Position numbers and translations under genes: made by a program | Shown here: positions 2,511 to 11,336 of the stretch, piece after piece | Position numbering within the stretch: position 1 is the stretch's first letter | Layout: the number at the start of each line of letters is the position of its first letter | Source: a virus | Lineage: Duplodnaviria; Heunggongvirae; Uroviricota; Caudoviricetes | Length of the DNA: 11,336 bases | Direction: 5' to 3' (one strand) | Virus record (IMG/VR): IMGVR_UViG_2541047121_000017 | Notes under the pieces: model-generated | Told to the model about the DNA's origin: nothing | What the model saw: only the letters and a program-made list of their open reading frames with translations | Database searches by the model: none

Positions 2511-3053
2511 TCACACTGATTGGTTAGGTAAAACGCTCCTAAGCACCATTGCGCAACCACCTCGTTCGTAATCAGCAATGTACTCAAAACCACTTTCAGT
2601 ATAGTATCTTATTGCCCCATCAACTGGACTAACTAAAGCTATCGAATCAATAGATTCACCCTGAAGGTTCAGAAATCGTGCATATGCAGAGAAGCAATCC
2701 AAAACGATACCAAGCATCTGATGGTCTAGGTCTTCATGTGCATCATTACGTTTTTCCATCCAGCAAATATGCACCGCATTTTTCGGCTTACAGTAACACC
2801 CAAATGCAAATCCAATAGGCTCCCCACGATAATAAACAACTAGTTTTATCGGGTGTTCTTCCATCATATCCATAAACACTCGCGACTTTAGTCCGGGATC
2901 CCACCGCAGTTTATTGTTAGCCTTGAGGAACTCCATATCTTTTAGTACCAGCTCGTCGGCATATACGAGCCCTAACGACTTATGAGGGAAGCGCCCTTTT
3001 AAATACTCTGCAACATTTTTAAATACTGCTGTTTGGAAGGCTTGAAACATCAT
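2511..3053 (-). CDS. Hypothetical protein (180 aa), first gene of the low-GC cassette; function unknown
   Basis: Clean 543-nt ORF in a region of lower GC than the flanking prophage genes. Has its own candidate promoter upstream. No transmembrane segments are obvious. The alternating beta-strand-like pattern and C-terminal YYTESGFEY hint weakly at an acyltransferase-like fold, but no GNAT motif A is visible. Confidence 0.6.
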   Translation of the reverse strand: MMFQAFQTAVFKNVAEYLKGRFPHKSLGLVYADELVLKDMEFLKANNKLRWDPGLKSRVFMDMMEEHPIKLVVYYRGEPIGFAFGCYCKPKNAVHICWMEKRNDAHEDLDHQMLGIVLDCFSAYARFLNLQGESIDSIALVSPVDGAIRYYTESGFEYIADYERGGCAMVLRSVLPNQSV

Positions 3054-8998: not shown

Positions 8999-9546
8999 GC
9001 GTTAGTTTCTCCACAGTCACGACACGCCACGGCGCCCGGAGCTGCACACTCGCGGGCGTCATTACTTTCTGAAATGCAAAAAATTTTGTAGACCAGTGCT
9101 GCATGCTCCTGCAGCTTCGAAATTGAGAGGTACAGCTCGTCGTTAATTGCTGTCTTCTCATGCGGTTCCACTACACCGTCTTCAATTGCTGAACGAATCT
9201 GTTTTGAATAACTGCCGATCTGTTCAATGACCTCCAGCAGGCGTTGGTTGATATCGGCGTTGTCCACATCCTCGACATCAGGAAGAGACACAAAGACGCC
9301 ATTTGCAGACTGCGCCACAGCGTCAGCAATGAAGTGAGTTCCACCAGCACGTTGCAAAATCATTGCCCATCCCAGCGGGAAAATCTGATCGCCATCGGCA
9401 CGAAGGCGGTTAAATAATGCGTTCTCTGTTACATCCAGCCAGTCAGCAGCTTCAGCGTACCCCCCCGGCAACGCTGCGATAGTTTTTCTGACAGCTTTCA
9501 CGTACCACTCAGGCTGTTTTTCTACTTTCCAGTGATGCTTACCCAC
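8995..9546 (-). CDS. CII-like early regulatory protein (CP76/YdaT-like family), 183 aa
   Basis: GTG start at 9544-9546 with a near-perfect Shine-Dalgarno motif (AGGAGGTGA) 5 nt upstream. Sits immediately after the cro-like gene. Family assignment is by synteny and general resemblance, not a verified alignment. Confidence 0.6.
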
Positions 9547-9799
9547 GGTTCACCTCCTGTTCCTGTGGTTTAAACCCATTCTGGTTTTGGCTAGATTGAA
9601 AACGTGCCGGATAAAGAATCTGCATTTCGCTGACTTCACCCTTAAAAAAATTGGCTAAACGTTCTGCAAGCTCGATAGATGGAATCTGCTCCAGCCTCTC
9701 AATACGACTCAACGTCGCTGGATTGACTTGAACACCCGCAGCAACATGCTGCAAAGTGAAACCATGCGCCTTACGCACATTTCGTAATGGTGATTGCAT
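9539..9799 (-). CDS. cro: Cro-like HTH (XRE-family) regulator, 86 aa
   Basis: HTH signature (RKAHGFTLQHVAAGVQVNPATLSRIERLEQIPS…). Transcribed divergently from the cI-like gene, with a GGAGG Shine-Dalgarno motif 4 nt upstream of the ATG. Confidence 0.75.
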   Translation of the reverse strand: MQSPLRNVRKAHGFTLQHVAAGVQVNPATLSRIERLEQIPSIELAERLANFFKGEVSEMQILYPARFQSSQNQNGFKPQEQEVNRG

Positions 9800-9896
9800 A
9801 CGCCCTCCAAATATTGCGCGTTATGCATGTTATTTCACGCAATTATTTTGCGCAAGTTGATTTGCTTATCACGCAATAAAGAAATGTAATAAACGC
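9800..9896. promoter_or_regulatory. Immunity-region intergenic segment with divergent promoters (pR-like and pRM-like) and operator-like TTGC/GCAA inverted repeats
   Basis: 97-bp AT-rich spacer between divergent cro-like and cI-like genes. Contains TTGCttatcacGCAA (9862-9876), the palindrome TTGCGCAA (9848-9855) and CGCAAttattTTGCG (9838-9852). A candidate pRM (-35 TTGCTT 9862-9867, -10 TGTAAT 9885-9890) would start transcription at or near the cI ATG. Confidence 0.5.
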
Positions 9897-10589
9897 ATGA
9901 ACATAGGAAACCGAGTCAGACAACTTCGCCAAGCGAAGAACATGAAAATCGCCGATCTCGCTGAAGCGATAGGAGTAGATGCGGCGAACATCTCGCGCTT
10001 AGAAACGGGTAAGCAAAAACAATTTACCGAACAAACACTGAGTAATATTGCCAAGAGCTTAGGTGTTGATATTGCTGATCTCTTTACCTCTGCCCACAAA
10101 AGTAATACTGTATATAAAAACAGTAATAATGAGGATGTTGCGCAGGTGAAGGATGTGTTCCGTATTGAAATGCTGGATATCAGTGCCAGTGCGGGAAATG
10201 GCCTTATCCAGGGCGGTGATGTCATTGATGTGATTCATGCCATCGAATACAGAACTGATAATGCTGTATCAATGTTCGGCGGACGACCAGCCAATCACAT
10301 CAAAGTTATCAACGTTCGTGGGGACAGTATGTGTCCAACCATTGAGCCAGGAGATCTCATCTTCGTTGATGTCAGCATCAATCAGTTTGATGGTGATGGT
10401 ATATATGTCTTTGGTTTTGATGACAAAACATACGTTAAAAGACTTCAAATGATTCCTGACAAACTGCTGGTGATTTCTGATAACCAGATTTACCGTGAAT
10501 GGGGAATTACTAGCGAAAACGAACACCGATTCATGGTCTTTGGAAAGGTCTTAATCAGTCAGTCGCAAACCCTTAAGAGACATAATTAA
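9897..10589 (+). CDS. cI: CI-like repressor (N-terminal XRE HTH plus C-terminal S24 LexA-like autopeptidase domain), 230 aa
   Basis: N-terminal HTH (RVRQLRQAKNMKIADLAEAIGVDAANISRLETGK) and C-terminal S24 signature with the catalytic Ser in GDSM (RGDSMCPTIEPGDLIFVD) and Lys in YVKRL. Divergent from the cro-like gene. Confidence 0.9.
   Translation: MNIGNRVRQLRQAKNMKIADLAEAIGVDAANISRLETGKQKQFTEQTLSNIAKSLGVDIADLFTSAHKSNTVYKNSNNEDVAQVKDVFRIEMLDISASAGNGLIQGGDVIDVIHAIEYRTDNAVSMFGGRPANHIKVINVRGDSMCPTIEPGDLIFVDVSINQFDGDGIYVFGFDDKTYVKRLQMIPDKLLVISDNQIYREWGITSENEHRFMVFGKVLISQSQTLKRHN
10106..10125. promoter_or_regulatory. Near-consensus LexA (SOS) box TACTGTATATAAAAACAGTA inside the cI coding sequence
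   Basis: CTGT-N8-ACAG with TA flanks and an AT-only spacer at 10106-10125; two mismatches to the E. coli consensus TACTGTATATATATACAGTA. It is the only CTGT-N8-ACAG in the window and encodes the cI interdomain linker (…TVYKNSN…). Confidence 0.6.
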
Positions 10590-10608
10590 CCTCAATATCC
10601 CATCCATC

Positions 10609-10632
10609 GGCCACCGAAAGGTGGCTTTTTAT
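10609..10632 (+). terminator. Rho-independent terminator downstream of cI (stem gccacc/ggtggc, GAAA loop, T5 run)
   Basis: Hairpin at 10610-10625 followed by ttttt at 10626-10630, about 20 bp after the cI stop codon. Confidence 0.6.
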
Positions 10633-10643
10633 TACCTATAAAT

Positions 10644-10680
10644 TTGCATATCTCGCAAATACCACTTGCATATCTCGCAA
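10644..10680. promoter_or_regulatory. Two identical 15-bp operator-like sites TTGCATATCTCGCAA, 22 bp centre to centre
   Basis: Exact direct duplication at 10644-10658 and 10666-10680. Each is an interrupted palindrome TTGC-N7-GCAA, the same pattern as a site in the cI/cro intergenic region. Located just after the cI terminator (oL-like position). Confidence 0.45.
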
Positions 10681-10987
10681 TTTAATTTTATCTTTTATTC
10701 CAGACCAACTACAGGATTACAACAAAATCTGGTTGCAACACGGTGCATGTGTCGTAAGCAGTCAGTAAATGTCAAAAACGAACAGGCAGGACGCCCACGA
10801 AGTAGCCGCCTGGGGCATATGAAGTCCAGGATGATTCGTTGAGTCATGTTGTGCCACTAGGCACTCATGTTAAAGCAGGTGTATGAAATGAAAGTCCAGA
10901 TTTTAAACAATAACTGTGAAGTCGTTTGGTCATACGACATAGCCGCCCCTGTAGATCAGAGCGGCGATAGCTGGACCAATGGGAAAC

Positions 10988-11336
10988 TGAACCGCCCCGG
11001 AAATCCTGGAGACTAAACTCCCTGAGAAAGAGGTAAACAGGATGACTAAAAATACTCGTTTTTCCCCCGAGGTCCGTCAACGGGCAGTTCGTATGGTTCT
11101 GGAAAGTCAGGGCGAATATGACTCACAATGGGCGGCAATTTGTTCCATTGCCCCAAAGATTGGCTGTACACCAGAGACTCTGCGTGTGTGGGTTCGTCAG
11201 CATGAGCGGGATACCGGGAGTGGTGATGGTGGACTCACCACCGCTGAACGTCAGCGTCTGAAAGAGCTGGAACGTGAAAATCGTGAACTGCGCCGCAGTA
11301 ACGATATCCTTCGCCAGGCTTCCGCTTATTTTGCGA
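10988..11336 (+). mobile_element. IS3-family insertion sequence (IS629/IS1203-like), left end and 5' part; continues beyond the window
   Basis: Left terminus begins TGAACCGCCCCGG…, followed by the orfA start; both match my recollection of the IS629 left end. The right end is not in the window. Confidence 0.8.
11042..11336 (+). CDS. IS3-family transposase OrfA (HTH plus leucine-zipper N-terminal protein), 3' end outside the window
   Basis: Translation [59 protein letters not shown]…[24 protein letters not shown] is typical of IS3-family OrfA (IS629-like). An AGAGG Shine-Dalgarno-like motif lies upstream. Confidence 0.8.

Follow-up and report, generated by a model that had tools for sequence, protein, structure and literature searches.

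The put RNA of phage HK022 binds the zinc-binding domain of the beta-prime subunit of the transcribing RNA polymerase (RNAP) and suppresses pausing and termination far downstream, and its cryo-EM structure is available (PDB 7XUE; PMC9378689). A 2025 paper described LLS and phages of the ST64B/mEp460 type as lambdoid phages without N, and a put-like mechanism was only speculated upon there. Here we analyse an 11,336-nucleotide stretch of viral DNA (IMG/VR record IMGVR_UViG_2541047121_000017; hereafter the window, to which unlabelled positions refer). Positions 10590-11336 of the window are the start of the leftward early operon, transcribed from promoter pL, of an SfII/SfV-like prophage at thrW, and they contain a conserved structured RNA of ~64 nt. 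By our tests this RNA lies outside the put family and is best regarded as a new structured-RNA family, which may work like put.

Like putL and putR of HK022, the new RNA falls in the class of structured RNAs of ~65-75 nt that lie directly past the early pL promoter of a lambdoid phage without a working N, and it does not depend on the identity of the downstream gene. Unlike them, it has an outer helix and is present in a single copy; homology is undetectable, and antitermination by the new RNA is putative. The nutL site of lambda (boxA + boxB), which is used with N, likewise lies in the leader that separates pL from the first early-left gene, whereas the new RNA is not itself a boxB hairpin and lies 5′ of boxA where a nut site is present. 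The EAR element of Bacillus subtilis and the antiterminator RNA of Tn916 (PMC11658703) would resemble it by analogy only, as cis-acting leader RNAs of long operons on mobile elements or in hosts; they come from unrelated organisms.

Fold and covariation of the conserved RNA

The initial annotation listed an Arg-rich open reading frame (ORF) of 31 codons upstream of the first early-left gene and left its meaning undecided. The ORF exists at the coordinates given (Table 1). In a BLAST search with 10590-10987, however, similarity to most phages shrinks to one block of ~65 nt (~10772-10844), and the start of the ORF lies outside this block. On sequence comparison, the ORF is not a gene, and it overlaps a conserved structured RNA.

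The fold of the RNA is a three-way junction, composed of two heavily covarying helices (P1 and P2), a GGA-loop hairpin (P1a) and an invariant CACGAAGUAGCC strand. In the gap-free alignment of copies, the loop of P2 reads GGCRYAYGAANN. Covariation was assessed in two independent sets of 48 and 92 distinct copies. In the set of 48 copies, 95.8% of the cells are paired, compared with 76.0% after shuffling and 18-46% when the partners are slid; in the set of 92 copies, the corresponding values are 95.8%, 77.3% and 27-40%, and none of 500 shuffles reaches the observed value in either set. Pairs that changed on both sides number 10 of 14 in the smaller set and 11 of 17 in the larger one, and comprise every pair of P2 and 5-6 pairs of P1. 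In particular, P2 pair 43-56 occurs as GC, AU, UA and CG in near-equal numbers among the 48 copies, while P1 is swapped wholesale (CGAA/UUCG, CCACC/GGUGG, UCAUC/GAUGA). The substitutions in the core thus preserve base pairing, not codons.

The stem of P1a never varies, while its loop changes in length (AGGAC, AGGAA, AUGGA, AAGGAAA, AGGGAAA, ACGGAUA) and keeps GGA in ~195 of the 197 distinct copies. At the boundary of P2 and the junction, 131 of these copies have a further motif, GGAUGA. The P1a stem is a plausible candidate helix, and GCC and GGC segments may pair in a candidate pseudoknot; neither of the two ever varies. Single-sequence folding of the window copy returns a different, non-significant structure (z = -0.79) and is uninformative, so the fold emerged from comparative data alone. 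We have little doubt that the structured RNA is real.

A terminator scan reported two minus-strand 'terminators' at 10782-10798. They correspond to the reverse complement of the GGC/GCC hairpin region followed by the A-run that precedes P1, and the RNA element has probably produced them artefactually.

Distribution and annotation status

The ~65-nt block was found in 33 phage records by megablast and in 49 by blastn, from phages of Escherichia, Shigella, Salmonella, Yersinia, Klebsiella, Citrobacter, Pantoea, Pectobacterium and Providencia. It is unannotated save in a few records, in which it merely overlaps an annotated hypothetical protein or repeat region. At least 120 IMG/VR contigs contain the exact 23-nt core, and a looser pattern occurs at 91 places in species-representative genomes, all but two of them Enterobacterales. 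A third of the complete E. coli genomes (1845 of 5426) carry the RNA, which is unannotated in all 40 matches listed. The copy of E. coli K-12 MG1655 resides in the e14 prophage, between the repressor gene ymfK and ymfJ, where no feature is annotated; the P2 loop of this copy opens with UAC, not GGC. The RNA, which spans the Enterobacterales from Escherichia to Xenorhabdus and Providencia, is among the most conserved non-coding elements that we observed in these phages.

Rfam 15 gave no match at E values up to 1 in the window (9500-11336) and none at the ST64B copy, and none of the GenBank and RefSeq records inspected annotates an RNA there. Within the literature searchable here, full-text searches for the core sequence or for elements like put did not bring up any account of it. 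Several described RNAs were considered as the same RNA and rejected: in NC-SV, svsR is embedded in the 3′ end of cI; in e14, C0293 (co293) is 5.3 kb distant and the model does not match it; and the Pas small RNAs are located in the Q-holin region. Resemblance of motifs also suggested a ribozyme (hammerhead or other), an RfaH ops site or a kink-turn, but these were dropped for want of an Rfam match and because neither the lengths of the junction strands nor the key bases agree with them.

Position at the 5′ end of the earliest transcript

The RNA almost always heads the first transcript that the phage makes. Specifically, a sigma-70 promoter scoring 9-11 of 12 precedes the RNA in 90 of 113 distinct upstream contexts, compared with 29 of 113 shuffled ones, and the -10 hexamer ends 12-24 nt ahead of P1 in 98 of the 113. 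These promoters carry many differing operators, i.e. differing immunities, and a same-strand S24 repressor gene lies 90-286 nt upstream of the RNA in 84 of 121 copies. In phages of the mEp237/PHB10 type, the RNA follows a promoter of its own and precedes kil and recE. The T5-like Providencia phage PR1 has a 69-bit copy in its terminal repeat, 13 nt past a TG-extended promoter, where it heads the pre-early operon with A2 and A1.

In the window, pL is assigned because of its operator repeats and its homology to promoters in two other loci (L022 and L026), where a matching TTGCGT-17-TATCTT promoter stands 12 nt ahead of the RNA; a consensus promoter scan of the window did not call it. Transcription probably starts near 10701, which places the RNA at ~+76 of the transcript and ~80 nt past the left operators (OL) and pL, with ~65 extra bases compared with the homologous promoters. 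The two OL 15-mers are spaced 22 bp apart, and a third operator (9862-9876) lies between cI and cro. The operator pattern TTGC-N7-GCAA occurs three times in the window, compared with 0.47 occurrences expected by chance, and none of 200 shuffles reaches three. In order, the segment from 10590 onwards comprises the cI terminator, the pair of OL operators that overlap the probable pL, a ~75-nt leader, the ~64-nt RNA, a hairpin and the first early-left gene.

The genes that follow the RNA are diverse. The first downstream ORFs belong to more than 50 unrelated families and lie 3-650 nt away; among them are orf33, Kil, a zinc-finger protein of the ClpX type and numerous unknowns. No conserved terminator and no helix sequestering a Shine-Dalgarno (SD) sequence follows the RNA across these contexts, the sequence past P1 being unrelated. 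A consensus boxA (GCTCTTTAACAA) follows the RNA in 41 of 197 distinct contexts, PR1 included, mostly within 6-65 nt. In Xenorhabdus and Photorhabdus prophages, the RNA stands just upstream of boxA; a clear lambda-like boxB (GCGCUGAAAAAGCGC) can be read in one of these prophages (L194), and in others of them the RNA is followed by N-like genes (weak matches to phrog_271). The window contains no boxA, boxB or N gene, and it is outside the set with a boxA-like motif up to ~155 nt past the RNA.

Two further elements were observed past the RNA in other phages. Between the RNA and boxA, E. coli-type copies have a hairpin with an ANGGA loop. ST64B-type copies are followed directly by a second structured domain of ~160 nt with complementary ends (GGTGTCTTCGGGAGGGG ... 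CCCCGCCCGAAGATACC), which in ST64B sits in a gene-free stretch of ~800 nt past cI. A weak match to STnc100 in the ST64B locus (L007, 2852-2970) scores 35 bits, under the gathering score of 47.

Possible modes of action

The compact fold, the invariant junction, the position in the first transcript, the indifference to the downstream gene, the presence in temperate and virulent phages and the restriction to Enterobacterales together argue for a conserved host target, with no adjacent platform. The more than 50 downstream gene families and their distances also fit action at a distance on such a target. By analogy with HK022 put, we tentatively propose that the RNA is put-like and acts in cis on RNAP, a reading we regard as a serious possibility. 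With somewhat greater reserve, we suggest that it could represent another class of processive antiterminator or antipausing element consisting of RNA alone, unrelated to put in structure, which would load onto RNAP of the E. coli type where the earliest phage transcript starts. The RNA would fold during its synthesis and act in cis on its own polymerase; the polymerase would then resist pausing and termination, as with HK022 put, and N-less phages of this class would thereby be able to express the distant genes of the pL operon, xis and int among them. If true, this mechanism would explain early-left expression in the N-less SfV, SfII, ST64B, mEp460/LLS and e14, as well as the T5-like pre-early operon, and the RNA would be a further natural case of antitermination by an RNA, with which the structure of put could be compared. 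The RNA is a concrete and testable candidate for the N-less lambdoids and can be studied directly in K-12.

A comparison of HK022 with locus L126 bears on this proposal. The cI proteins of L126 and of a further locus (L223) are 54% identical to HK022 cI, and an HK022-like OL/pL can be read in L126 (TTGGTACTTTACA...GTACAT). L126, a prophage, has the RNA (~1900-2060, oriented) where HK022 (L006 650-790, minus) has putL, as if one module had been exchanged for the other at homologous promoters. Furthermore, the RNA and putL both start with AG(A)CGAAC-GGC and contain GGAUGA. The put-like reading is also favoured by the lack of an annotated N gene in the carriers SfII and SfV and the reported lack of N in relatives of the LLS/ST64B type, by the terminator that the authors of SfV predicted inside the pL operon past the RNA, and by the boxA that often follows the RNA, a link to antitermination.

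Several observations weigh against a put-like action. The motifs common to the RNA and putL could be chance. No similarity to put was detected by sequence or model: the model misses putL and putR of HK022 (L005, L006) and putL of HK639 (L132), and a BLAST search with putL retrieved HK022, HK75, O276, phiEt88, HK639 and others, none of them carriers of the new RNA. The fold is a P1-closed three-way junction, compared with the two open stem-loops of put. Each phage has one copy of the RNA and none in the pR operon, whereas HK022 has both putL and putR; a second copy, as an analogue of putR, was found neither in the window nor in the SfII genome nor in any of 99 loci of up to 8 kb. Our own finder and the terminator scan, both of which cover the intrinsic type, gave no consistent terminator after the RNA and no convincing one along the O157 pL operon, so that the evidence for downstream terminators comes from the SfV annotation. 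The RNA coexists with boxA, boxB and N-like genes in Xenorhabdus and Photorhabdus prophages and is therefore not simply a substitute for N; HK022 itself has an N homologue, nun, directly after putL. Finally, the conserved GGA motifs also fit a binding site of the CsrA type.

This last point leads to an explanation that we hold to be unlikely, namely that the leader is bound by a host RNA-binding protein, with CsrA as the obvious candidate, which controls the stability or translation of the early-left transcript. The published CsrA consensus is RUACARGGAUGU. The RNA has at least two GGA motifs, one of them in a hairpin loop: the GGA of P1a is kept despite changes in loop size, the GGAUGA at the P2/junction boundary resembles the consensus, and the ANGGA-loop hairpin ahead of boxA supplies a third site in one class. 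However, repression by CsrA normally requires a site over the SD sequence, whereas here the first gene is of varying family and distance and no conserved overlap of a CsrA-type site with an SD sequence was seen among these contexts. Moreover, GGA sites leave the invariant CACGAAGUAGCC strand and the closed three-way junction unexplained.

It is likewise improbable, in our estimate, that the RNA is freed from the pL transcript, whose 5′ end it forms, and then works in trans, either by base pairing as a small RNA or as a decoy or sponge (e.g. against a host defence or factor). DicF, which is processed from a prophage early operon, is a precedent for a trans-acting RNA. The autonomous compact fold, the 13-nt invariant and apparently single-stranded stretch as a possible seed, the expression first upon infection or induction in temperate and virulent phages alike, and the independence of downstream context would all suit such a role, but no conserved terminator or processing site follows the RNA, it has no Hfq-type 3′ end, and no target was found, though no host genome was scanned for complementarity.

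It is quite unlikely that the RNA is an aptamer of the riboswitch kind, gating early-left expression in response to a metabolite or signal. A three-way junction at the 5′ end of an operon, with the most conserved nucleotides in the joining strands, is typical aptamer anatomy, but there is no conserved expression platform, no regular terminator or SD-sequestering helix across contexts, and no Rfam match.

Extremely improbable is a real, basic, N-like Arg-rich micro-protein encoded by the 31-codon ORF, with the conservation being protein-coding: it would be basic and Arg-rich and would stand at the place of N, and many copies have an in-frame stop (UGA, UAA or UAG) directly after P1, but conservation does not extend to the start and first nine codons (upstream of 10774, within the ORF, SfV no longer matches the window), ST64B has an in-frame TAG three codons ahead of the conserved core and no start ahead of the core, an ORF of at least 25 codons spanning the core is present in at most 69 of 197 copies in any single frame, and the substitution pattern is one of compensatory base pairing. 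The spurious ORF can be removed from the annotation. Should the RNA not act on RNAP and have another function (protein sponge, sensor or decoy), it would still be a new and widespread early-phage RNA.

Table 1. Features of the window and related loci. Strand is relative to the numbered sequence.
Feature	Sequence	Position	Strand	Basis or remark
cI-type repressor gene	Window	9897-10589	+	Pfam Peptidase_S24 (9.2e-19), HTH_3; PHROG transcriptional repressor; SfII-type immunity
Intrinsic terminator of cI transcript	Window	10609-10634	+	GGCCACCGAAAGGTGGC + T run; terminator scan; annotated terminator in SfII
Two identical operators	Window	10644-10658, 10666-10680	.	TTGCATATCTCGCAA; taken as OL2, OL1
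Probable pL	Window	10666-10694	+	TTGCAT 10666-10671, 17 nt, TATCTT 10689-10694; inferred from sequence
31-codon Arg-rich ORF	Window	10747-10842	+	ATG 10747, TGA 10840-10842; judged not a gene
Conserved structured RNA, ~64 nt	Window	10777-10840	+	Covariance-model match 10771-10848, 94.7 bits, E = 1.5e-30
Helix P1	Window	10777-10782 with 10835-10840	+	Outer helix enclosing P1a and P2; covariation
Hairpin P1a	Window	GGC 10785-10787, GCC 10793-10795	+	Loop AGGAC
Invariant strand	Window	10796-10808	+	CACGAAGUAGCCG, 13 nt
P2	Window	10809-10813 with 10826-10830	+	5-bp hairpin, loop GGCAUAUGAAGU
Junction AUGA	Window	10831-10834	+	
Hairpin CAUG-UU-GUGCC-ACUA-GGCAC-U-CAUG	Window	10845-10869	+	Read from sequence; between RNA and first gene
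Truncated first early-left gene (SfV orf33 family, phrog_3195)	Window	10888-11016	+	Native part 10888-10987
Target site AAC	Window	10985-10987	.	Second copy at far end of the insertion sequence, outside the window; L003 vs L004
Left 349 bp of IS629/IS1203 (IS3 family)	Window	10988-11336	+	Inverted repeat opens TGAACCGCCCCGG
Copy of the RNA in e14	NC_000913.3	1,202,104-1,202,182 (L231 7105-7183; L228 2998-3076)	-	Downstream of TTGACA-16-CATAAT
boxA contexts	L015, L019, L031, L071, L104, L123-L125, L133, L194, others	L133 2087-2099		Not in window
Second structured domain	L007 (ST64B); also L017, L020, L052, L082, L090, L126	L007 ~2575-2745		No Rfam match

Prophage layout and the absence of N

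The cI, cro and cII/YmfL genes of the window match those of SfII in order and length. The initial annotation reasoned that no intact gene stands where the N/pL leftward early functions would be, and that the prophage is probably defective. This conclusion does not hold. SfII and SfV share the layout and have no annotated N: in the full annotation of SfII, and in that of SfV across its early and late regions, Q appears but no N gene. Both were isolated as working serotype-converting phages. Furthermore, the prophage that bears the insertion sequence (IS) in strain NZRM3614 is full length, with terminase, tail genes, lysis, Q, replication, immunity, an xis-like gene, int and tRNA-Thr. Since SfII and SfV likewise have no annotated N, LLS is reported to lack it and the prophage is full length, the lack of N is normal for this phage type, a lambdoid class that is N-less by design, which corrects the habit of equating 'no N' with 'defective'. 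Any defect would probably come from polarity of two IS copies on the pL operon, with xis and int downstream of them, and poor excision is possible.

In the IS-bearing prophage, the serum-survival lipoprotein gene iss adjoins the lysis cassette just beyond the low end of the window (L229 21591-21884), and a truncated DNA methyltransferase pseudogene (L229 23326-23640, equivalent to window ~1562-1876) lies between the Q-region genes and the holin gene.

The IS629/IS1203 insertion

An IS629-like element had been proposed to start at the position given in Table 1, and comparison of an occupied site (NZ_CP032793, locus L003) with an empty one (NZ_CP066748, locus L004) bears this out. The two sites differ by 1313 bp, which comprises a 1310-bp IS and a duplicated AAC, thereby supplying both the other IS end and the 3-bp target duplication that the initial annotation had suggested looking for. 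In NZ_CP032793, the inverted ends of the IS are TGAACCGCCCCGG.../...CCGGGGCGGTTCA. The terminal inverted repeats are imperfect and start with TGAAC..., the left one reading TGAACCGCCCCGGAAATCCTGGAG and the right one, as reverse complement, TGAACCGCCCCGGGTTTCCTGGAG. orfA of the IS opens with the ATG at 11042 and extends past the end of the window, which therefore holds only its 5′ part. In RefSeq, an identical copy is annotated as an IS3-family transposase, with a joined coding sequence, a programmed frameshift and a pseudoknot feature.

Among 5426 complete E. coli genomes, only CV261, NZRM3614 and the O157:H7 strains AC-3 and AC-5 contain the whole segment 10590-11336 at 100% identity, and the site is occupied in these four alone. 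In contrast, 10590-10987 is present at 100% identity in many O157:H7 genomes in which it continues without the IS. In its terminal repeats, its length of 1310 bp, its 3-bp duplication and its orfA/orfB -1 frameshift, the element matches the IS629/IS1203 copies of O157:H7 prophages, which are multicopy and occupy 13-26 places per genome record. The insertion here is in no way unusual compared with known ones, and its site is rarely occupied. That the insertion and the severed gene are real is beyond reasonable doubt; insertion and truncation are events of already-known kinds and routine in the biology of O157:H7.

A second IS1203, in opposite orientation and beside a frameshifted hypothetical gene, lies 785 bp past the first (L003 6494-7707; L229 34847-36060). 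Two IS copies thus stand between pL and yfdR, xis and int in the IS-bearing prophage.

The severed early-left gene

A short ORF opened by the ATG at 10888-10890 (MKVQILNNNCEVVWSYDIAAPVDQSGDSWTNGK, MKVQILNNN...) had been read as crossing the junction, as from a gene cut by the insertion. This reading proved correct. The ORF ends with the TAA at 11014-11016, and its 9-residue tail past the junction consists of the junction codon and eight IS codons (LNRPGNPGD*). The IS cuts after codon 33, leaving 33 native codons in the window copy, and the SD sequence of the truncated gene is AGGTG (10877-10881). At the empty site in many O157:H7 genomes, an intact gene of 91 amino acids (WP_021563905.1) begins with the same ATG, such that relatives free of the IS do have a gene spanning the junction. 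Homologues exist, and they identify the interrupted gene as SfV orf33, or phrog_3195, a family of unknown function (E = 3.8e-65 for the intact protein, residues 1-91); SfV orf33 is annotated with 98 amino acids, from an upstream ATG. Pfam, NCBIfam, PADLOC and the PDB sequences contain no match to the severed protein. In SfII (L002 / L136), the equivalent of window 10888-10935 holds just a 15-codon remnant (MKVQILNNNCEVVWA*), and similarity to the window stops at 10929. Since SfII has only these 15 codons, the gene is dispensable.

The hairpin between the RNA and this gene keeps its stem among the variants found in relatives. It buries an alternative ATG at 10867, which is the start used in the SfV annotation; the start at 10888 used by NCBI has the better SD sequence, AGGTG with a spacing of 6 nt.

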